A DNA stretch of 64,000 nt from a virus (IMGVR_UViG_3300048892_000198:1-64000); one strand, 5' to 3'. Shown: positions 22,370 to 42,506, numbered from the stretch's first letter. Notes: generated by a model from the letters alone, not told the origin. Program-made: numbers and translations.

Positions 22370-22627
22370 TTAGGCCTGATTTGGATGCAGAATCTTGACC
22401 GAAAGCCACGCAACGGCGAGCGTCGTGACGACGCCGGCGACGATCGGAAAGAGGAGGCTCTGCCTCGCTTCAGCCACGAGCGAGGTGCGGACGCCGTTCA
22501 CGCAGCCCGAGCATTCGGGGAAATCACTGCCCGCGTCATCGGGACAGATCTCGCAGTCCGAGCCCGAAGCGATCATGCAGGGCCCGCACGCTTCCCCGAG
22601 GCCTCTGACCGCTACGTAGCTCATCAC
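22370..22627 (-). CDS. GLG-family tail-anchored Cys-rich protein
   Basis: MMSYVAVRGLGE; six Cys; C-terminal TM. Confidence 0.7.
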   Translation of the reverse strand: MMSYVAVRGLGEACGPCMIASGSDCEICPDDAGSDFPECSGCVNGVRTSLVAEARQSLLFPIVAGVVTTLAVAWLSVKILHPNQA

Positions 22628-23040
22628 TTCCAGAGGAAGACGACACCCGCGAGCACGAGTGCGCCGGACACGATGAGCAAGGCCTTGTTAGGAGTCGCGG
22701 CAGTATCCCCGGTGCCACGCTGTGAGCACGGGCACGCGCCGACGCCCATCATGCCGTCCCGCGGACGGTACGTGCTCTTCTGCGGGAAGTGACCGAGGCC
22801 ATTGATGGCCTTCTCGTACTCGGGCTTGAAGTACGCGCCGAGACCGTTGATTGGTTTTTCGTACTCGGGCTTGAAGTATGCGCCAAGCCCTTCGACCGCG
22901 AGGCGCGGGGGGCCGACGAGGTTCGGGTTGACTCCGAAGGAGGGCCATGGCGCGCTCTTCCAACCCGCTTCTCCGGCATGCCACGGGCTGTCGGGCTGGT
23001 GCATGCGGTAGTACTCGGGTTTGATTTCGGCGTAGCTCAT
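22624..23040 (-). CDS. GLG-repeat tail-anchored protein
   Basis: (GLGAYFKPEYEKxIN)x2 followed by GLG; C-terminal TM ending in K. Confidence 0.75.
   Translation of the reverse strand: MSYAEIKPEYYRMHQPDSPWHAGEAGWKSAPWPSFGVNPNLVGPPRLAVEGLGAYFKPEYEKPINGLGAYFKPEYEKAINGLGHFPQKSTYRPRDGMMGVGACPCSQRGTGDTAATPNKALLIVSGALVLAGVVFLWK
22801..22890 (-). repeat. Two 45-bp intragenic tandem repeats
   Basis: Encode GLGAYFKPEYEKPIN and GLGAYFKPEYEKAIN. Confidence 0.85.
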
Positions 23041-23696
23041 GGGCTCACTCCAGGGGCAGCAGCGTGCTGCTTGAGAAATTCGAAGGCGGTGGTCGCTTCC
23101 CGGAAGCGCTCAGCGGCGCGAGCCCGATCCTGTGGATTGCGATCGGGGTGATGCTTGAAAGCCTGAGCTCGGTAAGCCTGAGCAATGTCTTCTGCGGATG
23201 CGCTCCGCTTGACCTTGAGGATCTTGCGCGCGTGAGCGAGGCGCGCAAGTAGGATCGGATCTGGCGGAGGAGACGGCGGGGGCGCGTTCTTTCGGGAGCG
23301 CGGCCCGGGCGGAGGCGCAGATCCTGGGGGAGACGATGGGTCGTAGGCCGCACCACCACGAGCATGCGCGGGGGTGTGGTCGTCGATGTCTTGCTTGACG
23401 CAGGGGAAGCACACCACCTGTCCGCTCCGAGCGGCAAAGGAGTGATTGAGGCACGTGGGCTTCCGGCAAACGCTACAGGCCGCGATCGCAGGCGATGGGC
23501 ACGGATCACCGCGAAACAGCACTTCGCAGGGGATCCCGGTGAGCAGGTGCGGCAGCCAGAGCTGGGATGCGCTCCGGCTGAGCTCGGCGACCCAAGGACC
23601 AATGGCAGTCCAGGCATTGCGCGCGCCGTCGGGCGCGGCCTCCGACAGATGCGAGGCGAAACGCCCGAGCGCACCAAGGAACCCTTCTTTCGCCAT
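23037..23696 (-). CDS. J-domain (DnaJ-type) co-chaperone with B-box-like zinc finger
   Basis: C-terminal ILKV...IAQAYR...KHHPDRN...FREATTAFE; CSVC..CLNH..CFPC. Confidence 0.88.
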   Translation of the reverse strand: MAKEGFLGALGRFASHLSEAAPDGARNAWTAIGPWVAELSRSASQLWLPHLLTGIPCEVLFRGDPCPSPAIAACSVCRKPTCLNHSFAARSGQVVCFPCVKQDIDDHTPAHARGGAAYDPSSPPGSAPPPGPRSRKNAPPPSPPPDPILLARLAHARKILKVKRSASAEDIAQAYRAQAFKHHPDRNPQDRARAAERFREATTAFEFLKQHAAAPGVSP

Positions 23697-23736
23697 TGAC
23701 GAGAGCGTAACATCGGGGGCCTTGCGGGTAAAACGC

Positions 23737-24225
23737 TCAGCGCTTGAAGGCGAGGTAGGCCGCGATCCCGACGATCGACACCGCCACGATCTGATTGAAC
23801 GGGTCCTTCAATGCCCGATCGAGCGGCTGGGGGACTGAGAGTGAGCTCGAGACGCAGGGCGCGATCGCCTGGCAGGCTGCATCCGAGACCGCGTCGCCGA
23901 GCACGCCGTCGCGGAAGGCGTGGCCCATGCCGCGCACGCTTCGGCGCTGCTGGCGCGGGAAGGCCTGCATGAAAGTGCGACCGAGGGCGCCATCTTGGAA
24001 GGCCTGCGCTTGCGCTTGCCCGACGCCCACGAGCGCGTGGTGCTGTTTGTAGTAGCGCGAGGTCGGCGCGCGTCGCAAGAGCGACCACTGCATGGGGCGC
24101 ATCAGCGCGCCGAGCGCGCCGTTCTCGAACTCTTCCAAGCTCGCCTGATAGCCCTGCCAGGGGGCCGCCTGCGAGAACACGCCGTCCTGCCACTCACCTT
24201 CGGGGCCGCTCATTGCTTTGTACAT
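23737..24225 (-). CDS. GLG-family tail-anchored protein with F-x-D-G-x-L-G repeats
   Basis: FENGALG, FQDGALG, FRDGVLGD; C-terminal TM plus KR. Confidence 0.7.
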   Translation of the reverse strand: MYKAMSGPEGEWQDGVFSQAAPWQGYQASLEEFENGALGALMRPMQWSLLRRAPTSRYYKQHHALVGVGQAQAQAFQDGALGRTFMQAFPRQQRRSVRGMGHAFRDGVLGDAVSDAACQAIAPCVSSSLSVPQPLDRALKDPFNQIVAVSIVGIAAYLAFKR

Positions 24226-24246
24226 CGTGGGAAATCCTTTGCCTGG

Positions 24247-24276
24247 ATGGTACCTGGGGGAGGGACTCGGGCGCAA
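24247..24276 (-). promoter_or_regulatory. Sigma70-like promoter
   Basis: - strand TTGCGC-N18-TACCAT, just upstream of the 24225 start. Confidence 0.5.
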
Positions 24277-24949: not shown

Positions 24950-25165
24950 TCAGAAGTGCTTCGATACGTGGTGTCCGTACTTGATCCCGACGACGACGCC
25001 GGCACCAAGCGCCAGTACGATCCAGGCCCAAGACGGAATGCCCGCCGACATCTCGGCGTCGCCGAGCCCGACAGCTCGACCGGCGAGCTTGACGGGATTC
25101 GCGTCGATCTTCATGGCGGCGCCCGCGATCTTCTCGAAGTCGCCGGGGCTCATCACGAAGTCCAT
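24950..25165 (-). CDS. GLG-family small membrane protein
   Basis: VGLGD; C-terminal TM. Confidence 0.7.
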   Translation of the reverse strand: MDFVMSPGDFEKIAGAAMKIDANPVKLAGRAVGLGDAEMSAGIPSWAWIVLALGAGVVVGIKYGHHVSKHF

Positions 25166-25371
25166 TACGCGGCTCGCTTGCGACGTTTGACTGGCTGAAG
25201 CGTCGCGTAGAAGATATAGCCGACCGTGCCGAGCGCGGCGATCCAGATACCGATGGTGAGGGGGCTCATCTTCGGATCGGTTACCACGACTGGGCCGGCG
25301 GGAGAGGCGGCATCACCCATGCCGCAGCCGCAGCCCGAGTCGGTGCCTGAAAGCGCGACGATGCGGGCCAT
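25165..25371 (-). CDS. GLG-family small membrane protein
   Basis: MARIVALSGTDSGCGCGMGD; TM plus KRRKR. Confidence 0.7.
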   Translation of the reverse strand: MARIVALSGTDSGCGCGMGDAASPAGPVVVTDPKMSPLTIGIWIAALGTVGYIFYATLQPVKRRKRAA

Positions 25372-26186
25372 CAGGCGGCGCTCCGTCTGCCCGTGACGAG
25401 CTTGTAGGCGCCCACGGCGGCGACGGCGCCGAGCGCGACCCAAAGGATCGCCTTGGTGTTGGTGGAAGCAGTGGGCGCCATCGCGGCGGGCGCCAGCGGC
25501 ACGGGCGCATTCGAGCCCGGGATTTGTGGCTGCCCAGGGCTCACCGGGCTCACCGGAATAGTGGACTGCACGGCCGGCGTCGCCGGCACCGTGATCGGTC
25601 CCTGCCGGAGCTGCGCGTTGAATGCGCTCGGGAAAGACCCCGATGCTGGGTGCGCGCGGTCTGACGCGGGAGGCGAGATCTCCAGGATGTACACGAGCAC
25701 GCCACCGATAGTCGTCGCGGCGTAGTTGAGCGAGGTCGGGCCGGTCTTCGGATCGGCACCGTCTCTCAGCCTCAGCCAGTAGAGGAAATAGATCCGAGGC
25801 GGGCTCGCATTGTCGAGCTGCGAGTAGACGGCTTCGGTGCGGTCGTACGCGAAGGGCGTGCCCTCGAAGGCTGCTTTGACAGCTTGCTGCCCCGTCAGCA
25901 CCGGAGAGATGACGGCAAGCTCTTGCACCACGCTGGAAGTGGTATTCGTGACGGAGACGAGCTGGAGGTCATTGACCGCGTACGCCTGGTAGTCCTTGAG
26001 CGGAGAGGCCTCGACCCACGAGGTCTCGAGCGTTGGCGACTGTGCGGCCCACTCGGTGTAGACGAGACTCGGAGCCGCACCGATGAGCGCGAGGAGCGCC
26101 TGGTCGGCAAGCGGGAGCGATTGATCGTCGGCGCCGAGCCCCGACAGATCATTGCGAAAATAGGAGGAGCCGAAGCGCAGCGTCAC
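25371..26186 (-). CDS. GLG-family tail-anchored virion-like protein
   Basis: SYFRNDLSGLGAD; Pro-rich linker; TM plus K..RR. Confidence 0.75.
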   Translation of the reverse strand: MTLRFGSSYFRNDLSGLGADDQSLPLADQALLALIGAAPSLVYTEWAAQSPTLETSWVEASPLKDYQAYAVNDLQLVSVTNTTSSVVQELAVISPVLTGQQAVKAAFEGTPFAYDRTEAVYSQLDNASPPRIYFLYWLRLRDGADPKTGPTSLNYAATTIGGVLVYILEISPPASDRAHPASGSFPSAFNAQLRQGPITVPATPAVQSTIPVSPVSPGQPQIPGSNAPVPLAPAAMAPTASTNTKAILWVALGAVAAVGAYKLVTGRRSAA

Positions 26187-26336: not shown

Positions 26337-27158
26337 TTAAACGCCGCCAGATTTCGTGATGCAGGGCGCGATCGCCTTCTGCATCGCGATCAAATTGCTA
26401 TCAGGCATCAGAAACCCAAACACGCTCGCTTCGAAGAAGCCTACCGGGATCGGGATGGCTCGGAATACCGAGCAGCTCATGATGAAGTCCTCGCTCGAGT
26501 GCAAGATCCAGGGAGCCGGCACATGGAGCAGCCCCTGGCGGAAGTGGCGCTGCGGCATGAGGCTGAGGCCGAATGACGGCGACTGCACGCTCGAGGCACG
26601 GGCGGCGGCAAAATCATCGTCCGTCGCCGATCCCGGAGCCGAAGCCGACGGGATGCCGAGGTTCGGCATCGACTGATAGGCGGGCGAAGATGCGTTGGCG
26701 GGCGGCAGGGGATTGAGCTCGTAGTGGTAGTTGCCCTGGCGATTGGCGTTGGCCTTGATGTCCCAGCCGACTTGCGTGGAGAGGCGATTGTCCTCGAGCT
26801 CGACGAAGTCTCCGGCGGCGCTCCCGCTCGGCCTGTAGATCGCAAAGCGCGTGTCGAGTACGACGAAGCCCATCGTCTCAGGCACGTGCACGAAGCCCAT
26901 CTCGAACTCGCACTGCTGGCTCGGCGTCGCAGTGAAGATTCCGTCGATCGGCAGCCGTCGAAACACCGCCTCGAACGGCACGATCGATTCGGGGATGAGG
27001 TAGCTACTAAGCTGGCCTCCGGCGAGCATCACGCGATCGGTTGCGCACGCCGTGATGACGCCGCCATTGAGGCTCGGCTGCCCGAACAATGCTGGATTCG
27101 CGCGCCCGAGCGCGGCGAAGCCCGCTTGCTGCTGGGGGTTGAACAGAGGCTGATCCAT
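26337..27158 (-). CDS. Putative single-jelly-roll capsid-like protein 3 (minor capsid or penton)
   Basis: Beta pattern FEMGFVHVPETMGFVV, VGWDIKAN, PWILHSSEDFIMSC and terminal ASVFGFLMP; third of a tandem trio; fold is an inference. Confidence 0.5.
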   Translation of the reverse strand: MDQPLFNPQQQAGFAALGRANPALFGQPSLNGGVITACATDRVMLAGGQLSSYLIPESIVPFEAVFRRLPIDGIFTATPSQQCEFEMGFVHVPETMGFVVLDTRFAIYRPSGSAAGDFVELEDNRLSTQVGWDIKANANRQGNYHYELNPLPPANASSPAYQSMPNLGIPSASAPGSATDDDFAAARASSVQSPSFGLSLMPQRHFRQGLLHVPAPWILHSSEDFIMSCSVFRAIPIPVGFFEASVFGFLMPDSNLIAMQKAIAPCITKSGGV

Positions 27159-27170
27159 GCCTCTATCCTA

Positions 27171-28121
27171 TCAGTAAGGGCCGCTACCCGCAGGCTGCAC
27201 GATGCGATACCCGTGGTAGCCGATGTAGAGGATGCCGTTTGGGAGGCGGGTGATGGGATCGGTCGTGCCGGCGTCGGTCGAGACCTGATCGTTGATGCCT
27301 TCGATGTAGTCCCAACCCGAGGCCAAAAACGGGAAGTTGGCGTTGGCCGACGCGAACGACTGGATGTTGCCGTAGTCGGGGTTGTTGATGTGGGTCGGCT
27401 GCACCTCGAACGTCAGCTGCTCGCCGCGCTCGAATACGTCGAGGGCTCCGAGCTCGAAGGGGCTGTTGACCTGATCGGTCCAGAAGGCCGAGGGGACTTC
27501 GATGTTCGAGCGGGGGAAGGAAGAGCCGGCGTTCAGGAATTTGACCGTGTAGTCGGCTTGCATCGAGCGGAAGGGCGAGCCGTTCGAGGGGGAGAGGATG
27601 TGGGGTGCGCCGGTGCCGGGGAAGGCGAGACCGGACTGAGCCACCTGCTGGCGCGGCATGCCGTCCATGAGATCCCAGGTCGAATGGATCGGACGATAGC
27701 GACCATAGGATCGACCGAAGAAGGTCGCCTTGGCGCCCGTCACCGGATCGATGCGCTGCAGCTGGTACTGACTCAGGAAGATCGCCATGCGGCTCACGGC
27801 CACGAAGGGGCCTTCCTGGCTGATGAGGATCGATCCCTGCTGCTGCGAGTTGACGTTGGCGCCGATCGGGATCCTCACGAGCAAATCGAAGGGCACCCGG
27901 CGACCAGGGATATTTTCGATGTACTGGATGTTCGGGGGGTTGTTGGCGCCCGACCGATTGACGGTGAAGTTTTTCTGGATGTCATCCAGGCGCTTGTTGA
28001 CCTGCTCGAAGGCCTGCGAGTGGCCTTGGGCAACAGCGAGAGCTTGCTGGGCCGTGGCGCTCGCTTCTCGAGCGGTGCCGGCGGCGTAAGCGATCTGACG
28101 GGGGTCGATATTCTGAGTCAT
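27171..28121 (-). CDS. Putative single-jelly-roll capsid protein 2
   Basis: VPFDLLV, ISQEGPFVAV, YTVKFLNAGS...SNIEVP, PFELGALDVFERGEQLTFEV and terminal LYIGYHGYRI; fold is an inference. Confidence 0.55.
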   Translation of the reverse strand: MTQNIDPRQIAYAAGTAREASATAQQALAVAQGHSQAFEQVNKRLDDIQKNFTVNRSGANNPPNIQYIENIPGRRVPFDLLVRIPIGANVNSQQQGSILISQEGPFVAVSRMAIFLSQYQLQRIDPVTGAKATFFGRSYGRYRPIHSTWDLMDGMPRQQVAQSGLAFPGTGAPHILSPSNGSPFRSMQADYTVKFLNAGSSFPRSNIEVPSAFWTDQVNSPFELGALDVFERGEQLTFEVQPTHINNPDYGNIQSFASANANFPFLASGWDYIEGINDQVSTDAGTTDPITRLPNGILYIGYHGYRIVQPAGSGPY

Positions 28122-28301: not shown

Positions 28302-29054
28302 TTACTGAACGTCTCGGCTGAAGAGCCCATCGAACGTGAACGTCACGACCTTGTTGATCGCGTCGATCGCGTTCAGGTTGTCGCGTAGGCTCAGCAGGCT
28401 GCGCTGGCCCTGGCTCGTCCCGGCGATGTTCGTGTTGGGATCTCCGGGCAAGGCGTAGATGTTCGCCGTGCACTTGATGTTCTGGCGCGGGGGGATCAAG
28501 ATCGCGCGGGCGAGCCGCAAGATGCCCGAGTGACCATCCGTGCCGGAGTTCTGCATGTGGATGAGGTCGGTCGCGCCGCCGAGCTGAGCCGAGAGGCCGC
28601 CGCCCGTCGGGAAGTACCAGGTCGGCATGTTGGTGATCGAGAACTTCTCGCCGGTGCCGAAGCTCCAGTGAAGTTGCTCCTCGGTCTGCCAATGCAGCCG
28701 AAACACGTCTTCGATCTGGCCTGGAGCTTGGCCCACGGCCGCTCCCGACCCAGTCCAGAGCGCCAAGTTGCCGTAGTCGCCGTTCAGGGCGAGCTCGCCA
28801 TCGACGCCCGCAACGCGCAGGATGCTGTTCCGGTACCAGGAGAACACCCGCAGCGCCAAGACGACGTGCGACTGATCGGAGGGCAGCGTGCTGCCGTTCT
28901 GGAGGTTGGTGGTGGCAGGGGTCCGGACGGTGCCCGACCCGCCGAAGAGATCGGTCGTGTCGCCGACCGTACCCTGGCTGTAGCCAGGCGTGCGGATCAG
29001 GGTATCCCAGAAGGGTTGGTGCACGCGCTCACGAATGGAAACGACTTTGGCCAT
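28302..29054 (-). CDS. Putative major capsid protein (single jelly roll)
   Basis: QPFWDT...TNLQNGSTLP...VLALRV, IPPRQNIKC and terminal VTFTFDGLFSRDVQ; strong AAGGAAG RBS, structured UTRs and position after the core protein; fold is an inference. Confidence 0.65.
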   Translation of the reverse strand: MAKVVSIRERVHQPFWDTLIRTPGYSQGTVGDTTDLFGGSGTVRTPATTNLQNGSTLPSDQSHVVLALRVFSWYRNSILRVAGVDGELALNGDYGNLALWTGSGAAVGQAPGQIEDVFRLHWQTEEQLHWSFGTGEKFSITNMPTWYFPTGGGLSAQLGGATDLIHMQNSGTDGHSGILRLARAILIPPRQNIKCTANIYALPGDPNTNIAGTSQGQRSLLSLRDNLNAIDAINKVVTFTFDGLFSRDVQ

Positions 29055-29203: not shown

Positions 29204-31357
29204 TCAACCGAACACGCCCTGACCGCCATCGGTCTGCAGGATGCCGGCCGGCACCATCTCGGTCGCACTTTGCGGATTGGAGATGCCGCGGGTACCCGCC
29301 CAGAGCTGCCCGTTGGCAGAGCCTGGGATCCAGGTCGAGGCCGAGGGCACCGTCGAGATGGCCCCGAAGCCCGCGGAGGCCTCGTAGCTCGGGAGAGCCC
29401 CGACGCCGGCTGCCGCTTCCGCGATGGTCAACTCGCGGTCGAGATCGCCGTGCGGATCGATGTGGTTGGTGTTCGCGAGCTCTCGCGCTCCCATGCCCGC
29501 CGCCGCTTCCTGGAAGTCGGGGTTGGCACCGTAGCCGGCCGCTGCCTCGTAGGCAGGGAGACCGAGTCCGGACACGCCGTTGTTCGAGAAGTACTCGCCC
29601 AGGCCCGAGACGCCGGAGTCGAAGTACTCGCCGAGACCATTGACGCCCGAGCTGAAGTATTCACCCATCGGACGACCGATGGAAGAATACCGAGGCTGCA
29701 GGCTGGTGCCAGCGCCGAGGCCGTACATCGCGCTCAAGCGCGCTGCCGTGCCGTCGTCACCGCTCAGCATGTCCGAGTACTGCGGCACGAACTTCGTCAC
29801 GAGCGCCGACAAGAACGTGTGCGCGAAGCTCACGGCGATGCCGGTCATGACGGTGTTGCGCGTGCCCGCGTCCTTGATGAGCTTCGCCGAAGCGAAGACA
29901 CCGAGGCCTGCGACCAGGAAGGAGGCGCCGATCTTCTGGTAGGACGGATCGAGATTGATCAGACCGAGACCAGAAGTAGCGGGCGCCACGACCGCTGCAG
30001 TCGTCGGGCTCGTCGCGACGACGACTGCCGGCGCTCCGAAGATCCTCCCGAACACCTGCTTCAGTACGAGGTTGGTGATGACCTTGTGAGCGACCAAACC
30101 CGTCAGGGCAATGCCGCCCGTCTTCAGCACGAACATCACCGGCTCGAGGATGCCGTTCTTCCGGAACATCCGGCTGCCGTTGCGGCGATGCCGACGACGG
30201 CTGGAGCGGTTCCGACGATGCCCACGACGCCGACGGTTCGAGCTCATGCGCGCCCGGCTTCGGCTGCGACGCCGACGCGGGTTTGCACTCAGCCGCCGAC
30301 TCGAGCGCCGACGACGGCGACCGTTGGCGGTGAGCTTTCGCTTGGCCCGACGCCGACGACGCTTCGGTGCGCCGCCTTTGGCCAGAGCCCGACGACGGCG
30401 ACGAGCCGCAACGGCCGATTTCTTCATCGACAGCTTGCGCTTGCCCCGACGACGGGTCACGCGCTTCTTGGCGGACCGACGACGACGCTTCGGCGCTGCT
30501 GCGGAGGCCTTGCGGCTCTTCCGACGCTTTCGCTTCGGAGCTTTACCCGAGGCGCGGCGCGTACGCCAGCCCTTACGAGCTCCCTTGCTCGTGCCGTAGT
30601 TGCGCTTCAGCCGACGACGGCGGCGATTGGCTTTGAGCGTGACCTTCCGCGCGCGCCGACGTTTCCGCTTCGGAGCGGCAGTGCGCTTCGCAACTCGGCG
30701 ACGCTTCTTGGTCGTGCGGCGTTTGGCAACGCGACGGCGCTTGACGGGCTTGCGCGCGGCGCTCTTCTTTCGGCGACGAACTTTACGAGCCATGGGCTTC
30801 TTCCTTGTTGCTTTCTTGGGCGCCGCACGGCGCCGGGACTTCGGTTTCGCGGCCTTGCGCACGGCCTTCGCCTTGCGCTTCCGCTTTCGGGGCTTAGCCG
30901 GGCCCCAAGGATCTCGGTGACGACTGGCGGCGCGCTCCCAGATCCGCTCTTGCGCGGGGGACACGTCGTTGCGCTTCATGGAACGAGCGCGCTTCGCGGC
31001 GCCGTAACTCTTGTACGTTTTGACCCGTCGCTTGCCGCCGACGTAGCTCACTTCACGGACGGGGCCGCCGCCTTTGCGCCAAGCGCGCAGGCTGTTCTTG
31101 CCCTTGGCCGCTCGCATCTTCTGCGCGAAGGCGGACTTCTTGGCAGCGCTGAGACTCGAGCGCGCCGCGGCGGGGCGGCGATTGGCGCTGAGACCGCTCA
31201 TCGTCCGGCGGGCAGAGCGGTAGCTGCCGCGGCCATTGATGGCGGCGATGTGGGTAACGGAACCGTTCCGCTTGAGGGCGCGCTTCTTCGGCGGGCTAAC
31301 GTAGCCGTACGCCTTTACAGCGTTCTTTTTGATGCGGTATGCGCGCCCAATAGCCAT
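29204..31357 (-). CDS. Protamine/histone-H1-like Arg/Lys-rich core protein with hydrophobic segment and GLG-repeat tail, 717 aa
   Basis: About 400 aa of K/R runs punctuated by xxxN motifs; hydrophobic helices; (G)xGEYF x3 and EAxAGxGA x4. Confidence 0.85.
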   Translation of the reverse strand: MAIGRAYRIKKNAVKAYGYVSPPKKRALKRNGSVTHIAAINGRGSYRSARRTMSGLSANRRPAAARSSLSAAKKSAFAQKMRAAKGKNSLRAWRKGGGPVREVSYVGGKRRVKTYKSYGAAKRARSMKRNDVSPAQERIWERAASRHRDPWGPAKPRKRKRKAKAVRKAAKPKSRRRAAPKKATRKKPMARKVRRRKKSAARKPVKRRRVAKRRTTKKRRRVAKRTAAPKRKRRRARKVTLKANRRRRRLKRNYGTSKGARKGWRTRRASGKAPKRKRRKSRKASAAAPKRRRRSAKKRVTRRRGKRKLSMKKSAVAARRRRRALAKGGAPKRRRRRAKRKLTANGRRRRRSSRRLSANPRRRRSRSRARMSSNRRRRGHRRNRSSRRRHRRNGSRMFRKNGILEPVMFVLKTGGIALTGLVAHKVITNLVLKQVFGRIFGAPAVVVATSPTTAAVVAPATSGLGLINLDPSYQKIGASFLVAGLGVFASAKLIKDAGTRNTVMTGIAVSFAHTFLSALVTKFVPQYSDMLSGDDGTAARLSAMYGLGAGTSLQPRYSSIGRPMGEYFSSGVNGLGEYFDSGVSGLGEYFSNNGVSGLGLPAYEAAAGYGANPDFQEAAAGMGARELANTNHIDPHGDLDRELTIAEAAAGVGALPSYEASAGFGAISTVPSASTWIPGSANGQLWAGTRGISNPQSATEMVPAGILQTDGGQGVFG

Positions 31358-31530: not shown

Positions 31531-31953
31531 TCAGGTACTCGAGCGGCGCACGAAAAAGTAGCCCGCGAGGCACGCCGCGCCGATGACGAAGTACCCGTTG
31601 AGCTTTGGGCGCCGCGCTTCGGCGTCGATCTTCTGGTAGTAGACGACTTTTTGTGGCTCAGCGAGCTGAGCGGCGTTCACCTGGCTCTGGTTCACGAAGA
31701 GCGAGCGCGTCCCTGTGCGTGGGAAGTTCGAGTTGTCGCCCGACGGCGGATAGGGCGCGGTCGGCAGCGGCAACCAAGCGGGGTAGAGCTTCGAGAGCGA
31801 TACGCGGTAGGCGTCGATCGATTGCTGCACCTTGGCCGCGGCTTGAGCTTGCTCCACCGCTATCGCCGACTGCGCCATGATGACAGTCTTAGGCGCGTTC
31901 GGGGTGGTCGTCGTCAGCGTCGAGGTCATGGTCGCACCCAGCATGCGTCTCAT
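31531..31953 (-). CDS. Tail-anchored membrane protein
   Basis: MRRMLGA; C-terminal TM plus RR. Confidence 0.7.
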   Translation of the reverse strand: MRRMLGATMTSTLTTTTPNAPKTVIMAQSAIAVEQAQAAAKVQQSIDAYRVSLSKLYPAWLPLPTAPYPPSGDNSNFPRTGTRSLFVNQSQVNAAQLAEPQKVVYYQKIDAEARRPKLNGYFVIGAACLAGYFFVRRSST

Positions 31954-33545
31954 GATTTTCTCTTCTTCCAGAGCGTCGCGCCGAGCAGGCCGACGCCGAG
32001 CAGCAGCATGCCGTAGTTCAGCAGGTCGGAGAGATTTTTTCCTGTCTTCTGCGCAACGACGTAACCTGCGGCGCGATCGAGCGCGGCGTTCGTGAGCTGC
32101 TGAGCGTTCGCTTTCAGGATGTCGTTGATCTTCTTTTCGGCGCCAACGGTCGCCGCAGTCTTCACGAGATCACCGACGACGGTCACGCTCAAGATCTGAA
32201 GTGCCTTCACGGCGGCTTGCTCTTGCGCAAGAGCGCTCGCCATGGAGTTCAGCCAGTTCTGCCTGGTGGTCGAGTCGAGCAGATCGACGCCGGAGGGCAC
32301 CGGGTAACTGCATTGATAATGCCGCTCGGCTTCGGGAAGCCAGATCGCGCCCCTCGCCAGAAACGCTTGCGCGTCGCGCTCGAGGCCCGTCGGCATCGTC
32401 AGGCCCGACACGATCGGGTAGGGGCAGCCGAAGTCCACGGGGCAGCCGTATGAGTAGACGTTGCTCCTCGCCGTCACGTCTTTGCCCTGCGCGGCGTCGT
32501 AGTACGTGGAGGCCTGCACCTGGTGCCCTACCACCTGCGCGCGGTTCGCTTGGGTCTCAGCGCCCGTGAAACGCCGCGTGGGCGCGTCCCACGCGTGCGA
32601 GAACGGCTGCCCAATCGGCGCGTATGTCTCGACCCCAAACCACCGAAGGTTAAACTTCCACCCGATGTTGATCTCGGCGAGCTCCCACTGAAGCTCTGTC
32701 GAGAGCAGTAGCTGATCGAAGGTCTGCCAGTAGCTCGCGCGCGCGGTCGAGCAGAGGGCATTGGCTTCTGCGACGGTCGACTTAGCCCACGAGCTCTGCG
32801 CGTTGATGCGCGATTGGATTTCTTCTGCGCCCGATGGGCCTGCGCCGAAGATCTGCCCGATGGTGCCCCCGATGTCTTTGCCGATGAGCCCACCAATGAA
32901 GGCTCCAATGGGCGCCGGGATCCCGAATGCCTGACACACGACAGCGCCCGCGATAGCGCCCGCGACGCCGCCAATGGCTTCGCACTCGGACGGACTCAGC
33001 TTCCCGTCCATGAGCGACTCGGCCGTCACCGTCAGGATCGACGAATCAAGCCCCGTCTCCATCACGAACGCCGTCGTCGCGAGGTTGACCGCGGCGGCCT
33101 TCAGATCTTTGACGTTCGTGGGCCAGTCGGTCGGGATCTGCACACCGAGATCGCTCGCGGCAACCTTCATGGCGTACTGCTCGAGTTCTTTCTGGTTGGT
33201 CGGCACGCCATTGTCGCGCGCGTAGGCGATGAGCGCCTTCTGCATCAGCGCTTCGACCTTCTTCGGATCCTTCAAGTCGCTCACCTTGAAGCCCGGGATC
33301 CCCTTGAAGTAGGCGGCGTATTTATTGTACTCGGCGATGACTGCGGCAGCGGGTGGGTAGTTCTCGAGCTGCTGCTTGGCGTAGGCGATGGCTTGCGCCT
33401 TGGCCTGATCGACGGCGGAGCTGACCGCGGCGTCGGCCTGCTTCTTGTAGTCCTGGGCGCTCGGCACTGTATCCGAGTTGCCCGGCAGATCGCTGTAGCC
33501 AAAGAGGCCGTGACGGCGACGGCGAGGCACTGCGGCGTAGGCCAT
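31950..33545 (-). CDS. Large tail-anchored virion membrane protein (entry or membrane-interaction candidate), 531 aa
   Basis: MAYAAVPRRRRHGLFG; internal glycine zipper GGVAGAIAGAVV...GAFIGGLIG; C-terminal TM plus KKRKS. Confidence 0.75.
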   Translation of the reverse strand: MAYAAVPRRRRHGLFGYSDLPGNSDTVPSAQDYKKQADAAVSSAVDQAKAQAIAYAKQQLENYPPAAAVIAEYNKYAAYFKGIPGFKVSDLKDPKKVEALMQKALIAYARDNGVPTNQKELEQYAMKVAASDLGVQIPTDWPTNVKDLKAAAVNLATTAFVMETGLDSSILTVTAESLMDGKLSPSECEAIGGVAGAIAGAVVCQAFGIPAPIGAFIGGLIGKDIGGTIGQIFGAGPSGAEEIQSRINAQSSWAKSTVAEANALCSTARASYWQTFDQLLLSTELQWELAEINIGWKFNLRWFGVETYAPIGQPFSHAWDAPTRRFTGAETQANRAQVVGHQVQASTYYDAAQGKDVTARSNVYSYGCPVDFGCPYPIVSGLTMPTGLERDAQAFLARGAIWLPEAERHYQCSYPVPSGVDLLDSTTRQNWLNSMASALAQEQAAVKALQILSVTVVGDLVKTAATVGAEKKINDILKANAQQLTNAALDRAAGYVVAQKTGKNLSDLLNYGMLLLGVGLLGATLWKKRKS

Positions 33546-34114: not shown

Positions 34115-34513
34115 TCAGCGGCGGCGGCGGACTCTTTTGGCGCGGTCTTCAGGGTAGTACGTCTCGATGAAATCCACGAAGTCGCTCTTGGCCCGGCCAA
34201 CCATCTCGATGATCTTTTCGAGCTTGCCGAAGGTCGCCAGCCCCTTCTTATCTTCGACCGCGAGCCAGCCACCCGATCGACCGGCACGACCCACGCGACC
34301 GATCCAAGAGTACCGACGGCGGAGCTCTTGAGCCAGCACATCGAGCGCTTGGTCGGACTCGGCCGTAAACTCTTCGTCCGTCATGCTCACGCTGACCGGA
34401 GGGATCTTGATATCGAACTCGTACTCCGCGCCCTCGTCACCGATCTTCCACTTCTCATCCCAGCGACAGGACGACTCGAGCGAATGCGCAGGACCTAGTT
34501 CTCCTGGCATCAC
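34115..34513 (-). CDS. Hypothetical phage protein with acidic core and Arg-rich tail
   Basis: GRSGGWLAV motif; ends RAKRVRRRR. Confidence 0.7.
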   Translation of the reverse strand: MMPGELGPAHSLESSCRWDEKWKIGDEGAEYEFDIKIPPVSVSMTDEEFTAESDQALDVLAQELRRRYSWIGRVGRAGRSGGWLAVEDKKGLATFGKLEKIIEMVGRAKSDFVDFIETYYPEDRAKRVRRRR

Positions 34514-34839
34514 TTCCTGCCTTTCCCAAGCAGAAACCCTAAGCCCACCCCAGCGAGCACCGCGCCTACAAACTTCCAGCCTGAGGTCGTAAAATCGAGC
34601 CCGAGACCCTTGAGGCCGGATTTGTTCATGGGGGCGACCATGCCGCGCGCGAGGGGACCCGAGCCAACGAGGCGCGCGTCGCTCGGAACACTGCGCCCGA
34701 TATCGGTCGAGGCGACGCCGAGCGGACTCGTCTTCGGCAGATTCGGGACGGGCAGATCATCTCCGAGCCCGTAGCGCGTGCTCGGGCTATCGAAATAATC
34801 ATACCCGCCCGTATCCGGGCGCCATCGCGAAAAGATCAT
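34510..34839 (-). CDS. GLG-family tail-anchored protein
   Basis: YDYF, YGLGD, KGLGL; TM plus KGRK. Confidence 0.72.
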   Translation of the reverse strand: MIFSRWRPDTGGYDYFDSPSTRYGLGDDLPVPNLPKTSPLGVASTDIGRSVPSDARLVGSGPLARGMVAPMNKSGLKGLGLDFTTSGWKFVGAVLAGVGLGFLLGKGRK

Positions 34840-35939: not shown

Positions 35940-36143
35940 CTAGCGACTGGCGCGAATTTCCTTGTGCAGCCTCACCGCGGGCAGGGCGCCGAGCAGCACA
36001 ACCGCACTCACCAATCCGCCTATCACGAACGCCGTCAGATAACCCGAGGCGCATGATTGACAAATCGTACATCCGCTTGCGTCGGTATCACCCATCGGAA
36101 TGGGCGAGGCGGCGGTGTGCATGAGGGGCATCGAGACGTACAT
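35940..36143 (-). CDS. GLG-family small membrane protein
   Basis: MYVS...PMGD; CxxCxxC; TM plus basic tail. Confidence 0.65.
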   Translation of the reverse strand: MYVSMPLMHTAASPIPMGDTDASGCTICQSCASGYLTAFVIGGLVSAVVLLGALPAVRLHKEIRASR

Positions 36144-36148
36144 GGCGG

Positions 36149-36346
36149 TTATTTCCAGGTAAAAATCAAAGTGACGACGCCAGCGCCGAGCGCGGCTCCC
36201 AGTAGCAACATCACCAGAGGGCTCGACGTATCGACGGGGGCGGAGTTCGTGCTCGGCGTCGATACCGTCACCGTGAACGGATCGCTGCCCATGCCATGAA
36301 GCGCGGGTTGCGGGTGACGCGGTGTGTAGCGATGCGGCATGTTCAT
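36149..36346 (-). CDS. GLG-family small membrane protein
   Basis: HGMGSD; C-terminal TM ending WK. Confidence 0.65.
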   Translation of the reverse strand: MNMPHRYTPRHPQPALHGMGSDPFTVTVSTPSTNSAPVDTSSPLVMLLLGAALGAGVVTLIFTWK

Positions 36347-37253: not shown

Positions 37254-37721
37254 TTACGCTCCCGCGCCGCGCGTCTTCTTCCAACGCTTGTAGCTGTAAT
37301 AGCTCGTCGCCAGCGCCGCGACCGCGACGGCGCCGTACACGTACGGATGCACCTGATTGAAGGGGAGCGTCACGTCCGAGCGGAGTGAGCTCACCGGATC
37401 GCCCGCCAGGAGGAAGCGCTTGACGGCGCCCGATGCGTTTTGGGAAACGCTCGCGAGCTCGGAGCTACTGACCGCGCCGAGGCCCTTGACCTGCACGTAG
37501 GAGTTTTGCGTGGGCGAATTCATGCGGTCCGTGCCTTGAAGGGAATTGTCCTGGAAGTACCCAAACTCATCGTAGGGCGCTCGAAAGTGCGCGATGCCGA
37601 CGTAGGATCGCCCAACGGGCCAGCCGTTCCGGTCTTTGGCGACCGCACCGAGCCCTTGGAGCACGGCGTTATCAAATGGCGCATAGGCGTGCGAGCGATC
37701 CACGTACAGGCGGCGAGTCAT
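37254..37721 (-). CDS. GLG-family tail-anchored protein
   Basis: Start MTRRLY; QGLGA and KGLGA; TM plus KRWKK. Confidence 0.7.
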   Translation of the reverse strand: MTRRLYVDRSHAYAPFDNAVLQGLGAVAKDRNGWPVGRSYVGIAHFRAPYDEFGYFQDNSLQGTDRMNSPTQNSYVQVKGLGAVSSSELASVSQNASGAVKRFLLAGDPVSSLRSDVTLPFNQVHPYVYGAVAVAALATSYYSYKRWKKTRGAGA

Positions 37722-38776
37722 TAGACCATGCCCTTCTTCTTGGCGTAGTAGTACGCGCCGCCGGCAGCGATGACAGCCAGGCCACCCATCATGAGCGCGG
37801 CGGTCGACACCGGGTGCTTGCCGGGCGGAGTCGGCGCGGGCGGCGCGCCCGGGGGCGGCTTGGATCCGGGAGCGGCGACGGCCTTCTTCGTCGGCAGGAT
37901 GTATGCCTGGCAGTTCTGGCCACCGTTCATGGTGAGGAGATCGTTGCCGGTGTTGTCGCCGATCCATTTCATCGCGCCACAGGTCTTCGCGTCGAGCACG
38001 CCCGTGACCGGGATGGGGTTCATGCTGTTGCTCGAGAGGATCGCGTTGATCTGATTCTGGAGCGCGGGCATGTCCGAGTCGGCGACGCCCCATTGATGCA
38101 CGATGGCGGGAGCGAGCTGCTGGCCCTGCACGACGTTGGCTTGAGGCGCCACGTAGGTCTTGAGCGGAGCGGACGCGCCGACGAGAGTGGGGTTCGTGCC
38201 CTGGCCGGTGCCGCAGTAGGCGTAGAGGTTGTAGTCCGTCCACACCGTCGATTGGCGGGGGTTCGTGCTGTAGAGGTAGAAGGCGGCGCCGCAGGTGGCG
38301 GGGCCGAGTTTGCCGTCAGCCGCGATCGTCTTGTAGCCGTTCCGGGAGAGATCGGCGTTGAGCGCGGCTTGCGCCTGCTTGACCGTTGCCGAGGCGAGCG
38401 TACCGGTTTGCTGCGCGATGGCGGCGTACTGCGCGCAGTTTTTCGGCACGCAGACCGCGGCGTCGTTGGCTGCCGAGTAGGCGTTGGTGCAGTCGTCGAC
38501 CGACATGCCGTACTGAGCGGCGTTGGTTTGGCAGTCCTGAGCAGCAGCGGCAAACTGCTGCGCATGGCAGTCCTGAAACGCCTGAATGCCCCAGCACTGC
38601 CAGGGGATCTCTCCGGGGGCCGCGGACGATCCGAGGCCCGCGACGGCGCCGTTCGTGAAGTACTCGCCGGCGGAGTTACTTTGCCGAGATCCGCGCGTGA
38701 TGGGCGTGTAGCGCGGCAGCACGCTGCCGGAGAGGGGTCGCGCTTGCGCGCTACGTGGGTTGAAGATGCCGCTCAT
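37721..38776 (-). CDS. Tail-anchored protein with two peptidoglycan-binding (PG_binding_1-like) domains
   Basis: VKQAQAALN...ADGKLGPAT and ALQNQIN...VTGVLDAKT; GEYF...AGLGS; Cys-rich; TM plus KKK. Confidence 0.8.
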   Translation of the reverse strand: MSGIFNPRSAQARPLSGSVLPRYTPITRGSRQSNSAGEYFTNGAVAGLGSSAAPGEIPWQCWGIQAFQDCHAQQFAAAAQDCQTNAAQYGMSVDDCTNAYSAANDAAVCVPKNCAQYAAIAQQTGTLASATVKQAQAALNADLSRNGYKTIAADGKLGPATCGAAFYLYSTNPRQSTVWTDYNLYAYCGTGQGTNPTLVGASAPLKTYVAPQANVVQGQQLAPAIVHQWGVADSDMPALQNQINAILSSNSMNPIPVTGVLDAKTCGAMKWIGDNTGNDLLTMNGGQNCQAYILPTKKAVAAPGSKPPPGAPPAPTPPGKHPVSTAALMMGGLAVIAAGGAYYYAKKKGMV

Positions 38777-38778
38777 GA

Positions 38779-39510
38779 TTAGCCTCGACGTTTCTTGATG
38801 AAGTAGACGATGCCCACCGCGAGGAGCCCGCCGCCCACGAAGCCCATCACCTTTTTGGTGTTCGAGCTCATGAGCGGGAGGGAAGAGTTGACCGATGCTT
38901 GCGCCGGCTTGATGGAGGTGACGGTGCTGCCGCCGCCCCCACCGCAGCCCGCGCTCGCGAGCGTCGGCGTTGCATAGTCCTGGCACGTGCTCGGGTTACT
39001 GTAGATGGCCCCCGAGGTGTCATCGATCGTGAGCCGATTGCGCGCGCCGCAGGTCGCCGGTCCGAGCTTTCCATCGACTGCCACCGGGCAATAGCCGGCA
39101 GCCTTGAGCGCGACGTTGGTGGCGGTTTGCAATGCCGCGGTCTTCGCGCTGTACGCGCGCCACGGGTAGTCAGCGGCGTCGCTCGTCGCGTCTCCGAGCG
39201 TGCGCGCCTTGCCGAGCGAGGGCGCGCCGGCGAGATTGCCGTCGAAGACGCCGCCGCCGTAGCCGCCGGGGCGAAAGATCCCTTCGCCCACGTTGAATTC
39301 TTGGGATCCGAGTCCTGAGTATCCGCCTGGGGGCTTGTCGGGGATCATGTCGATGTCTCTCGGTGGAAGAAAAACGGTCGTGGGCTGCTGGATCTGCGGA
39401 AACTTAAACGCCGGCCGCGACCAGATCCCGCCGTGGAAGCGCGTGGGGTAGGGCGGCACGTGCATCGTGTACGGCGTCGGCACGCCTGCGGGATAGCCGG
39501 GGCCTTTCAC
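38779..39510 (-). CDS. Tail-anchored protein with a peptidoglycan-binding domain
   Basis: ALQTATNVAL...VDGKLGPAT; SGLGS; TM plus KKRR; GTGA-coupled start. Confidence 0.78.
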   Translation of the reverse strand: MKGPGYPAGVPTPYTMHVPPYPTRFHGGIWSRPAFKFPQIQQPTTVFLPPRDIDMIPDKPPGGYSGLGSQEFNVGEGIFRPGGYGGGVFDGNLAGAPSLGKARTLGDATSDAADYPWRAYSAKTAALQTATNVALKAAGYCPVAVDGKLGPATCGARNRLTIDDTSGAIYSNPSTCQDYATPTLASAGCGGGGGSTVTSIKPAQASVNSSLPLMSSNTKKVMGFVGGGLLAVGIVYFIKKRRG

Positions 39511-40055
39511 TTGTGCTCCAGCGCGATGATGGCCTCGATGCCGAGACCGATGGGTCCCCCGAGGAGCGCCGCGGCGACGCCCCACCAGGCGTATTTCGAC
39601 TCGCGATCGCGGCTCGGCGCGACGGCCTTGCCGACGTAGTAGCCGCCGACGCCCGAGAGTACGATGCCGACTGCCGCAGCGGCGATGACGACCGCGCTCG
39701 CTGCAGCGACGGGTGCCGCCGCGCCGGGCACGGTTGGAGTGGTCGCATCACCGAGACCACTCACGGCCCGCACGGCGCGCACGAGGGGCGAGCCATTGAG
39801 CACGCGACCGAGCACACCAGAGCTGGTGGCTGACGGCGTCGGCATCTCGTACAGGCGCGAGTACGAGCCGATGCCGTCGGGGCTGCCGCGCATCCCGAGC
39901 GGCGCCATCGGATAGGCCGCGGGGTTGTACTGGGCATTGCCGTAGCCAGCGTTGGCTTGCACGACATCGTTGTGCCGCACCGGGAGCTGTTGCCCTGAGC
40001 TCACGACGCCGGGGGTCGTCAGCACTTCGTCTTCGTCGTCTTGATAGTCAAACAT
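39507..40055 (-). CDS. GLG-family membrane protein with two C-terminal TMs
   Basis: Start MFDYQ; SGLGD. Confidence 0.7.
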   Translation of the reverse strand: MFDYQDDEDEVLTTPGVVSSGQQLPVRHNDVVQANAGYGNAQYNPAAYPMAPLGMRGSPDGIGSYSRLYEMPTPSATSSGVLGRVLNGSPLVRAVRAVSGLGDATTPTVPGAAAPVAAASAVVIAAAAVGIVLSGVGGYYVGKAVAPSRDRESKYAWWGVAAALLGGPIGLGIEAIIALEHK

Positions 40056-40756: not shown

Positions 40757-40777
40757 GGTGATCTTGTTTCTTTCCGC

Positions 40778-41158
40778 TCAACCGGTGGCGACCTTGAAGA
40801 CGACGATGGCGGCGATGGTGACGCCCAGGTAAAGGCCCCAGCGAGTCTTCACCGATTGGGAGACGGCCGCTGGGGCGAAGGGGGAAGCGCAGTGGGTCTG
40901 GGTGATGACGCCCCAGGCGCCTTTCTGCGCGCCCTGCGTGGCGCGCTTGGGGATGGTCTCGACGACGCGCGTCTGACCATCGGGGCACGGGAAGGGCGCG
41001 GCGCACGGGAGCACCTGCGCTTCTGCGCACTCGGGCGAATCGATATCGACCTGGTTACACGCCAGCTGCGCGGCTTTCCAGGAAGCGAAATCGGTGCACG
41101 TCGAGGCGACGGGATTGTCTCCCATGCCGCGCTGCTGGATGGTGGCAGAATAACTCAT
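40778..41158 (-). CDS. GLG-family Cys-rich tail-anchored protein
   Basis: MSYSATIQQRGMGD; WKAAQLACN shared with 41164. Confidence 0.72.
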   Translation of the reverse strand: MSYSATIQQRGMGDNPVASTCTDFASWKAAQLACNQVDIDSPECAEAQVLPCAAPFPCPDGQTRVVETIPKRATQGAQKGAWGVITQTHCASPFAPAAVSQSVKTRWGLYLGVTIAAIVVFKVATG

Positions 41159-41163
41159 CTGGG

Positions 41164-41784
41164 TTAGGACTTCTTCCTCATCACCAAGTAGAGCGCGCCG
41201 CCGCCGACTGCGAGCGCCGCGAGCAGGCCCCAGTGACTGAATCCTCCGGCAGCTCCCTTCTGCGACACGATGGTGCCGCCGGGGATCGGAGCGGCGGGAG
41301 CCGCAGCCGGCGAAGAGCAACTGCAGATCGTGGCCGACAGTCCCCATTTCCCATTGAGCGCTTGCTTCGGTAGCCGCTCGCAGGTGTGCACCTGCCCAGG
41401 GGGGCACGAGTCGGGGCCTCCGCAGGGCAGCTGGGAGGCGACCGAGCAGGGATCGTTCGGGTCGATGGGGCTTGAGAGGATGGCGGGGGTACCACCGGAG
41501 CGCGAATTGCTCGCAGCGGCCTGCGCCGCGGCTTGCGCCGCCATCGACGCGATCGCCGATTGCGACATGGGCGCCGTCGGGGAAGGGGACGGACTCGAGG
41601 TCGGCGTGGCGTAACCGATGATCGAGCTCGGGTCGATTGAGCCGGTGATCGTGAAGCCGAGACCGCGGAGCCCCGCGACGCCCGTTGCCGCGTACCCGAA
41701 GCCCTTGACGGACGCGGCCTGCTGCAGTCGCGCGTTGCACGCGAGTTGCGCTTGCTTCCAGACTTGATTGTCGAGACAAGCCAT
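41164..41784 (-). CDS. GLG-family Cys-rich tail-anchored protein
   Basis: WKQAQLACN; RGLGF; TM plus RKKS. Confidence 0.75.
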   Translation of the reverse strand: MACLDNQVWKQAQLACNARLQQAASVKGFGYAATGVAGLRGLGFTITGSIDPSSIIGYATPTSSPSPSPTAPMSQSAIASMAAQAAAQAAASNSRSGGTPAILSSPIDPNDPCSVASQLPCGGPDSCPPGQVHTCERLPKQALNGKWGLSATICSCSSPAAAPAAPIPGGTIVSQKGAAGGFSHWGLLAALAVGGGALYLVMRKKS

Positions 41785-42506
41785 CAGGCAGCCGCTTTCG
41801 GTTTTTTGAAGGTCCTGTAAAGCGCGTAGCCGCCGACTGCGACCACGACCAGGATGAGCCCGTTGGAGAGCATGCCGGCGGATTTCTTCGTGGGCGTCGT
41901 CGTGATGGGCCCGGGAGATCCAGGCGTGATAGCAGGCACGGGAGCAGATGCGGGCGGCATCGGCTCGGGGCGTAGGTCGCCTGGCGGAGGACCCAGGACG
42001 GGCTGCGCAGGCGGGGTCGGCTGCGGACGCAAGGGCGCGATGGCGGGGAGAGCCGGCGGGCAGACTGGCAGCAGTGCCAGCGCGCAGGCGGAGCCAGTGG
42101 GATCGGCGCCGAGGCCGCGCACCGTTTGCGACATGGCGCTGCAGGTCTGCTGCCAGTTGTCGTGCTGGGCTTGCGAGACGCAGCCCGGGTAACCTGCAGG
42201 AGTGACCGCGCCCGCGGCCCGCGCCGCGGCGTTGGCCTGATCGAGCGCTCTCTGATTTTTGAGCTGCTGCTGCGTGCGCGCCACGAATGCCGCCGCGCGC
42301 GCTGCCTGCTCGGCCTTCCAGGCCGCGAGATCGCGCTGATAGCTCGCGAGCTGCGAAGCGTAGCCGGCGGCCGCGCCCGCGCTTTGAGCCGCGTAAGCTG
42401 CGACGGCGTTGTCGTGGCCCGCCTTCTCTTGCAGCCAGGCCGCGTGATCGGAGGCATAGTCGCCGAGCCCAGCGATCTTTCCGTGATAGGCGCGCGCGTA
42501 ACTCAT
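41784..42506 (-). CDS. GLG-family tail-anchored protein with coiled coil
   Basis: MSYARAYHGKIAGLGD; RGLGA; TM plus RTFKKPK. Confidence 0.75.
   Translation of the reverse strand: MSYARAYHGKIAGLGDYASDHAAWLQEKAGHDNAVAAYAAQSAGAAAGYASQLASYQRDLAAWKAEQAARAAAFVARTQQQLKNQRALDQANAAARAAGAVTPAGYPGCVSQAQHDNWQQTCSAMSQTVRGLGADPTGSACALALLPVCPPALPAIAPLRPQPTPPAQPVLGPPPGDLRPEPMPPASAPVPAITPGSPGPITTTPTKKSAGMLSNGLILVVVAVGGYALYRTFKKPKAAA

Follow-up and report, generated by a model that had tools for sequence, protein, structure and literature searches.

The window analysed here, that is, the first 64 kb (64,000 nucleotides) of the record IMGVR_UViG_3300048892_000198, comes from an uncultivated soil virus whose record is a single linear sequence of 110,728 bp (~63% GC, ~82% complete according to CheckV). 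Between positions 22370 and 43075 all genes lie on the minus strand, densely packed and often with overlapping stop and start codons; this block comprises 33 curated genes, coding for 6,555 residues. We investigated a short motif, G-[LM]-G (hereafter, the tag), which recurs in the membrane proteins of the block, together with a transglutaminase-fold enzyme encoded at the upstream end of the same block (42503-43075), which is a candidate for reading it. A first-pass annotation of this DNA had pointed to about 20 otherwise unrelated tail-anchored proteins sharing the motif, and had regarded it as a processing, docking or export signal. The tag-bearing proteins, together with one family that has a degenerate form (31950..33545), are as follows (aa, amino acids; tag positions are in residues).

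22370..22624, minus strand: tail-anchored, 84 aa, Cys-rich; starts MSYVAVRGLGE
22624..23040, minus strand: tail-anchored, 138 aa; starts MSYAEIK, with three tags in GLGAYFKPEYEK repeats
23737..24225, minus strand: tail-anchored, 162 aa; tag SVRGMGH at 99
24950..25165, minus strand: tail-anchored, 71 aa; tag RAVGLGD at 33, the helix 7 residues on
25165..25371, minus strand: tail-anchored, 68 aa; tag CGCGMGD at 17
25371..26186, minus strand: tail-anchored, 271 aa; tag DLSGLGADD at 16
29204..31357, minus strand: polytopic, 717 aa; six strict tags outside helices (two GLGEYF included) and three loose G[YVF]G forms, in the C-terminal region
31950..33545, minus strand: tail-anchored, 531 aa; the family consensus start, MSYAxVPxRxxxGxGxY, is a degenerate tag, and the related locus L006 has YGLGS
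34510..34839, minus strand: tail-anchored, 109 aa; two tags, RYGLGD at 24 and KGLGL at 78
36149..36346, minus strand: tail-anchored, 65 aa; tag LHGMGSD at 18; no homologue in the related loci examined
37254..37721, minus strand: 155 aa, weakly hydrophobic C-terminus with Lys/Arg (K/R) tail; tags VLQGLGA at 23 and VKGLGA at 80
37721..38776, minus strand: tail-anchored, 351 aa; tag VAGLGS at 47; weak PG_binding_1 match, sub-threshold in Pfam (19 bits vs. cut-off 23)
38779..39465, minus strand: tail-anchored, 228 aa; tag YSGLGS at 51; peptidoglycan-binding-like segment in common with 37721-38776
39507..40055, minus strand: two-helix membrane protein, 182 aa; tag AVSGLGD at 100, directly before the first helix
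40778..41158, minus strand: tail-anchored, 126 aa; starts MSYSATIQQRGMGD
41164..41784, minus strand: tail-anchored, 206 aa, Cys-rich; tag LRGLGF at 41
41784..42506, minus strand: tail-anchored, 240 aa; starts MSYARAYHGKIAGLGD, with a second tag, VRGLGAD, at 131

In the block we counted 30 copies of the triplet G[LM]G, where 300 residue shuffles gave 5.7±2.3 and at most 12, and 20 copies of the longer form G[LM]G[DAES] (1.5±1.1 in residue shuffles). Within this genome the approximately fivefold enrichment is confined to the block: the other 118 open reading frames (ORFs) hold 19 copies, vs. 20.5±4.2, and thus no excess, and no other G-x-G triplet is enriched in the block to a like degree. Seventeen of the 33 curated genes carry G[LM]G, and 16 carry it outside a hydrophobic helix, in 26 instances altogether. 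A C-terminal transmembrane helix, mostly followed by K/R, is present in 21 of the 33 proteins, 15 of which are tagged, and among the remaining 12 the polytopic 717-aa protein alone bears the tag outside a helix (Fisher p=0.01 for this association, under a crude automatic classification). The soluble proteins of the block (capsid-like proteins, enzyme and a J-domain protein) bear none. Alignment of the 26 instances yielded the consensus [AG]-[VLI]-x-G-[LM]-G-[ADES], in which the position two before the first Gly is V/L/I in 18 cases and V/L/I/M in 19; looser G-[YFVI]-G forms occur in the same contexts, and the middle residue follows the order L > M > Y/F/V/I.

The carriers fall into ~13 families with no detectable mutual similarity, and a few of the proteins are detectable paralogues; a Pfam search returned no family match for any of the motif-bearing proteins, and PHROGs gave no useful match for the ten block proteins queried. 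In the tail-anchored proteins the tag always lies across the membrane from the K/R tail, while for the 717-aa protein the helix count is too uncertain for a topology rule to be applied. Many tags lie 8-25 residues from the N-terminus; most are not N-terminal, with positions reaching 130 residues into the chain or, in the 717-aa protein, falling in the C-terminal third. An M-S-Y start is found in five to six proteins (22370, 22624, 40778, 41784, 36343 and the family consensus of 31950), and since its codons differ among the genes, what is preserved is the protein sequence. A hydrophobic N-terminal segment resembling a Sec or lipoprotein signal is absent from every tag-bearing protein, and the Cys patterns of the Cys-rich ones resemble CxxC zinc knuckles. 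A glycosylation sequon, a lipobox and a sortase-type C-terminal signal were each considered for the tag and dropped, as its distance to the helix is variable and no Cys, Ser/Thr or Asn pattern goes with it.

Much of the first-pass description is borne out by these analyses. All of the peptide strings it quoted are present in minus-strand ORFs (22370-42521), the carriers are indeed largely unrelated, free of Sec signals and, in 15 of 16 cases, equipped with a C-terminal helix and K/R tail, and the motif does exceed its Gly-rich background. The figure of about 20 proteins should, however, be lowered to 16 with the tag outside helices, 15 of them tail-anchored; the M-S-Y start is real but is not a general feature; and, of the Cys-rich and peptidoglycan-binding character ascribed to several carriers, the former was found whereas the latter comes down to the one sub-threshold match listed above.

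The tag is also conserved. Twelve syntenic related loci (designated by L numbers) were found in JGI metagenomes, with 29-68% identity to the anchor protein, and tag conservation was tested on eight of them; the tag is enriched in all eight. In the divergent locus L010 there are 19 tags vs. 4.3±2.1, and 16 vs. 1.5 when a hydrophobic residue two positions before is included. Strict G-[LM]-G is kept at 86 of 101 orthologous sites, as the earlier proposal would have it, and several others read G-[IVFY]-G; identity is 93-94% in the two Gly columns, the best conserved of all, and 55-80% in the columns beside them. The tag of 24950-25165 is kept in 5/5 orthologues and the first tag of 37254-37721 even in L010, and the tag can persist where its flanks change completely, as in 25371-26186, whose L010 orthologue reads INGLGQ in a different setting (NDLSGLGADD vs. 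LAPINGLGQEQ). Insertions beside a tag often carry a second one, the N-terminal tag is duplicated in orthologues of 41784-42506, and the repeat of 22624-23040 varies in copy number among relatives (GLGAYFKPEYEK two to four times); the tag of 40778-41158 is lost in L001, L002 and L004. Such independent gain and duplication of the tag in orthologues points to sequence-specific recognition. In the 717-aa protein, ~420 N-terminal residues made up mostly of Arg/Lys runs (protamine-like) are followed by hydrophobic helices and then by the tag-rich region; its repeats are conserved in eight loci, and the protein is recognisable down to 39% identity in L010. Taken together, the best explanation is that the tag is carried as a mark in flexible leaders and linkers of particle proteins that are anchored in the membrane.

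The relatives contain, in addition, a membrane-protein family of their own, in which a conserved ...SGLGIAP stands directly before a helix.

L001:6713-7630, L002:7130-8023, L004:6740-7645, L006:3848-4747 and L010:1263-2231: ~300-aa SGLGIAP protein of the relatives

At the corresponding place, 35940-37253, four small ORFs stand in the window instead of this single protein, so that the position is a variable slot in an otherwise syntenic block.

The enzyme gene lies next to the last of the tag-bearing genes.

42503..43075, minus strand: transglutaminase-fold Cys-His-Asp enzyme; likely start Met14 at 43036, giving 177 aa

It matches the Pfam family Transglut_core (PF01841) with an expectation value (E) of 1.4e-5 and 25.7 bits vs. 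a cut-off of 23, and its putative triad, C103, H136 and D153, is invariant in 31 homologues of 56-95% identity. A total of 284 homologues were found, most of them 177-180 aa long and most also matching PF01841. The enzyme gene ranks with the best conserved in this virus group and belongs to its core. It is soluble, signal-less and without a membrane anchor of its own. Its most informative relative is gp34 of SSIP-1, a cultured phage of Salisaeta that has no tail, contains an internal membrane and has capsid proteins of two types (PMC6356626). The two enzymes are linked by tblastn (E 3e-3) and by hhalign (96.9%, E 1.6e-10, 133 columns, triad aligned), and gp34 is annotated as a structural protein and has its own C-terminal membrane helix. 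A Pfam search at E<=0.01 returned only PF01841 for the enzyme, with no match to the LapG/BTLCP family (DUF920), and adenain/Ulp1 domains (PF00770, PF02902) gave no match at E<=10 in the 110.7-kb record, which is ~82% complete. We infer that the enzyme is a protease. The suggestion that it leads an operon is not supported: same-strand genes continue upstream of it, and no sigma-70-type promoter was found there.

The enzyme may be held at the membrane by one of the tagged proteins, 34510-34839, which is highly conserved (50-87% identity). Complex prediction for the enzyme with the soluble residues 1-86 of this protein, in three runs and with three controls, gave a median score of 0.72 (runs 0.84, 0.72 and 0.72), and the best of the three controls reached 0.01; for comparison, this mark is attained by 58 of 80 solved complexes and by 2 of 110 mismatched pairs. 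The predicted poses share at least 56% of their contacts, and the predicted local distance difference test (pLDDT) of the partner is at least 52. The modelled interface comprises 130-160 contacts, formed by enzyme residues 46-69, 124-126, 140-153 and 156-172 and by partner residues 1-12, 23, 26, 29, 31-49, 63-68 and 71-80, the best defined being those between enzyme 149-151 and partner 41-44 and between enzyme 50-62 and partner 64-68. The prediction supports, rather than shows, that 34510-34839 is a stable wrap-around partner holding the soluble enzyme at the membrane. Such a separate tether would have a counterpart in the anchor that is part of SSIP-1 gp34 itself and, as an analogy, in the vasohibin-SVBP pair. 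Comparison of 34510-34839 with the C-terminal half of gp34 by hhalign was not significant; hence, a 'split gp34' is only an analogy.

The particle to which these proteins would belong can be outlined from the untagged genes of the block.

28302..29054, minus strand: jelly-roll capsid-like protein, 250 aa, untagged; AlphaFold2 model with pLDDT 76.5 and predicted template modelling score 0.77
26337..28121, minus strand: two conserved beta-rich proteins, 316 and 273 aa (27171-28121 and 26337-27158), untagged, with homologues in metagenomes

Searched against VIA, the model of the 250-aa protein best matches the SPV1 capsid protein (Z 7.4), P23-77 VP17 (Z 6.4), HHIV-2 (Z 6.3) and HCIV-1 (Z 5.8), all of them jelly-roll capsid proteins of membrane-containing viruses, with modest Z values and a Foldseek E of 0.03. 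Against BFVD, an unnamed 211-aa UniProt entry, I1ZBH9, scored best (E 8e-4); its length would suit gp46 or ORF35 of SSIP-1. A jelly-roll capsid fold is likely for 28302-29054, as judged from the model, and the 316-aa and 273-aa proteins are probably capsid components as well; the AlphaFold2 model of the former is poor (pLDDT 52), and comparison of capsid-like protein profiles with PDB sequences yielded no match. No terminase, portal or HK97 capsid was recognisable with Pfam in the ORFs scanned, an FtsK-type packaging ATPase had no match in the 110.7-kb record (~82% complete), and hhalign against the SSIP-1 structural proteins yielded nothing beyond gp34. The jelly-roll match, along with the link to SSIP-1, makes a tailless, inner-membrane particle the likeliest architecture. 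The 316-aa protein has more than 540 metagenome homologues (543 or more), on contigs of up to 138 kb, and the 531-aa membrane protein and the enzyme are distributed similarly. Two queries of IMG/VR revealed no relatives, nor did GTDB genomes, and deposited phage genomes gave none when queried with the 316-aa protein.

Two observations concern the gene of the 250-aa protein itself. Directly after it lies a strong terminator-like hairpin (28222-28199, minus strand; 10 pairs, 9 of them G-C, then a T-run), which suggests that this is the most highly expressed gene of the block. In L004, the orthologue of this gene has beside it an inserted ORF of 215 aa (L004:14540-15187), whose LAGLIDADG-like motif reads LAGIVDGEGCF and whose product is probably a homing endonuclease.

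The remaining features that bear on the argument, or that accompany it, are the following.

23037..23696, minus strand: J-domain protein, 219 aa, untagged; C-terminal DnaJ domain (Pfam E 8.6e-14), Cys-rich middle
34855-35373 and 35408-35878, minus strand: paralogous pair of soluble beta-rich proteins, 39% identical; common to both is VV[ND]G[IV]GSS, a looser version of the tag
43154-43522, minus strand: small conserved Cys-containing ORF (…WRGLPFLWQEE…CPVAGSGC…), just upstream of the enzyme gene
7662-8843, minus strand: S8/S53-type serine protease; Pfam Peptidase_S8 E 1.9e-10, GGTSAVAP serine motif, Pro-rich C-terminal linker

The J-domain protein may recruit host DnaK for the handling of tail-anchored proteins, and the beta-rich pair are possible vertex or spike proteins. 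The small ORF at 43154-43522 has no family match and is also present in L001 and L002. The serine protease gene is 14 kb away from the virion block. Outside the block the genome further codes for DnaB, a sigma factor, ThyX, a sliding clamp, several glycosyltransferases, a collagen-like protein of 1,695 aa and a Kelch protein.

How, then, is the tag used? We tentatively favour the reading that the tag is cut by a cysteine protease of the virion, tethered to the membrane, and we infer that the enzyme encoded at 42503-43075 does the cutting. In its fuller form, which we hold with somewhat more reserve, this reading describes a large, widespread and uncultivated group of jelly-roll, inner-membrane bacterial viruses in which a tethered protease reads hydrophobic-x-G-[LM]-G on more than 12 unrelated tail-anchored proteins and on a protamine-like core protein. 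According to this scheme, the tag would be both the recognition and the cut site of the virus' own transglutaminase-fold enzyme, which the tail-anchored 34510-34839 would keep at the membrane; during assembly, the tethered enzyme would trim short N-terminal leaders (MSY...GLG), cut linkers near the membrane and cleave the basic 717-aa core protein into pieces within its repeat region. A cut after the second Gly would place Leu/Met at P2, the position usually read by papain-like enzymes. With regard to topology, it would fit that the N-domains of the tail-anchored proteins are cytoplasmic and later face the capsid, with the short basic tails directed toward the DNA, because the signal-less enzyme is predicted to bind an N-domain and because a J-domain protein is encoded in the block.

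The scheme would mirror the action of the adenovirus protease (AVP) on minor capsid and Arg-rich core proteins at (M/I/L)XGX-G sites, although the folds of the two enzymes are unrelated. AVP cleaves at (M/I/L)XGX-G and (M/I/L)XGG-X, trims minor capsid proteins and Arg-rich core proteins with the removal of short leaders, and travels with the particle, aided by a peptide cofactor (PMC3386624, PMC7998265). Similarly, the site considered here is Gly-based, has a hydrophobic residue four positions before the putative cut and occurs on many virion proteins; the 717-aa protein joins an Arg/Lys-rich domain to a tag-rich region; and the SSIP-1 homologue of the enzyme is a virion protein. Unlike in adenovirus, the enzyme has a transglutaminase fold with the order Cys-His-Asp, the host is bacterial, the targets would be mostly tail-anchored and the cutting is putative. 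In SSIP-1, x-G-[LM]-G likewise stands near the start of several late tail-anchored proteins, and in gp34 it is found in the linker before the protein's own anchor, whereas the enzyme studied here is soluble and has a predicted separate tether; the two viruses also differ in genome size (44 kb for SSIP-1 vs. 110-138 kb in this group), and gp34 is the sole sequence match between them.

Precedents exist for a protease of this fold. LapG has a transglutaminase fold and a C-H-D triad and cuts sequence-specifically between two alanines, near the end of a membrane-associated substrate (PMC3032545, PMC4694147); unlike the viral enzyme, it is periplasmic and calcium-dependent and has one or few substrates. 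Vasohibin, a transglutaminase-like cysteine protease, needs a small, tightly bound partner, SVBP (PMC6642083), much as a small partner is predicted to wrap the viral enzyme, but vasohibin is eukaryotic, has a Cys-His-Ser triad and is bound by a soluble helix rather than by a membrane anchor. The use of one site on many proteins has its own precedent: in T4 and phiKZ-like phages, many unrelated particle proteins have in common a short leader or site that is removed during maturation. These phages differ from the group described here in being tailed, with HK97-fold capsids, assemblin-type serine proteases and sites ending in Glu.

Several observations weigh against cutting at the tag. Tags stand in tandem and in variable copy number in 22624-23040 and 29204-31357, which multivalent binding would fit at least as well. 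The leaders before some tags are very conserved (residues 1-23 of 34510-34839), which is unusual for discarded propeptides, and the transglutaminase fold also covers cross-linking enzymes and amidases. Enrichment of the tag in the late genes of SSIP-1 is weak (9 vs. 5.1±2.1). Finally, in the predicted complex the interface covers much of the partner, and the catalytic Cys103 and His136 lie outside the listed contacts; the model thus offers no substrate pose and no tag in the active site. Of the earlier proposal that a transglutaminase-like protease cuts at GLG/X, the fold, the triad, the homology to gp34 and, as a prediction, the binding to one tagged protein are upheld, while cleavage itself is putative and the modelled pose is not that of a substrate.

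The tandem tags and the conserved leaders lend weight to the main rival reading, which we consider somewhat less likely, namely that the tag is an uncut docking signal, whose Leu/Met knob, set between glycines in a flexible linker, plugs into a pocket of the capsid shell or of an assembly factor. It would recruit unrelated membrane proteins to a virus-specific patch and tie the membrane to the capsid, with repeats providing avidity. This would account for the tandem tags with conserved aromatic flanks (GLGEYF three times, GLGAYFKPEYEK two to four times) and variable copy number, for the conservation on both sides of several tags, and for the restriction of the tag to membrane proteins and its absence from the soluble capsid-like ones; moreover, the resemblance of the 250-aa jelly-roll to capsids of internal-membrane viruses indicates that a capsid-membrane interface probably exists. 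However, the receptor pocket is putative, the position of many tags 8-25 residues from the N-terminus is leader-like, and docking accounts neither for the strong conservation of an enzyme with intact Cys-His-Asp residues nor for its place in the SSIP-1 virion. Cutting and docking could both apply, as a leader may act in targeting before it is cleaved off.

The other explanations fare worse. It is improbable that the tag is a passive element without a shared partner, such as a hinge, a membrane-interface turn or a remnant of common ancestry. Gly-rich linkers are common and a few of the carriers are paralogous, but the lack of enrichment of other G-x-G triplets, the retention of exact G-[LM]-G with the hydrophobic residue two before while the flanks diverge, and the independent gain and duplication of tags in orthologues all speak against it. 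Cutting by another protease, either the S8/S53-type enzyme (7662-8843) or a host enzyme, seems to us quite improbable. The genome does code for a subtilase-family protein, and the ranking of the middle residue recalls the P1 preference of subtilases, whose hydrophobic S4 and S1 pockets would suit hydrophobic-x-G-[LM] followed by G. Nevertheless, the serine protease is encoded well beyond the virion block and shows no connection with the membrane proteins; the transglutaminase-fold enzyme, by contrast, is encoded beside them, belongs to the core and is predicted to bind one of them. That the MSY...GLG leader serves as a non-Sec export or membrane-insertion signal for the N-domains is very improbable: the C-terminal K/R tails, which favour N-out, the weak PG_binding_1 match and the Cys-rich proteins would agree with it, but most tags are not N-terminal, M-S-Y starts are few, the enzyme predicted to bind an N-domain is soluble and signal-less, the J-domain protein points to cytoplasmic handling, and no transporter or C39 peptidase domain was found in the ORFs scanned with Pfam. 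The positive-inside argument for exported N-domains, made in the first-pass annotation, is doubtful for the same reasons and in view of the zinc-knuckle-like CxxC patterns. The related idea of a double-glycine leader exported by a C39 system was rejected, as the tag is G-[LM]-G rather than GG and the scanned ORFs contain no C39 or ABC domain.

In conclusion, the tag is real, specific and conserved, and its interpretation as a cut site is a plausible hypothesis. Virion maturation or sorting via a short shared site is a known kind of process; new would be the enzyme fold in that role and the virus group, which is undescribed. To our knowledge, no maturation protease and no shared processing or sorting code has been described for internal-membrane bacterial viruses (PRD1, PM2, P23-77, SSIP-1), and one question that such particles raise is how dozens of small membrane proteins get selected into them. 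A conserved tag and a conserved enzyme are found here as a pair, in a group with hundreds of metagenomic relatives and contigs of up to ~138 kb, and as the enzyme has a homologue among the SSIP-1 virion proteins, the idea can be put directly to the test in a cultured relative. If true, this would be the first maturation protease system of prokaryotic membrane-containing icosahedral viruses, and a striking convergence with adenovirus in both site and logic; moreover, if the tag is indeed cut, virion membrane proteins would become predictable from sequence.

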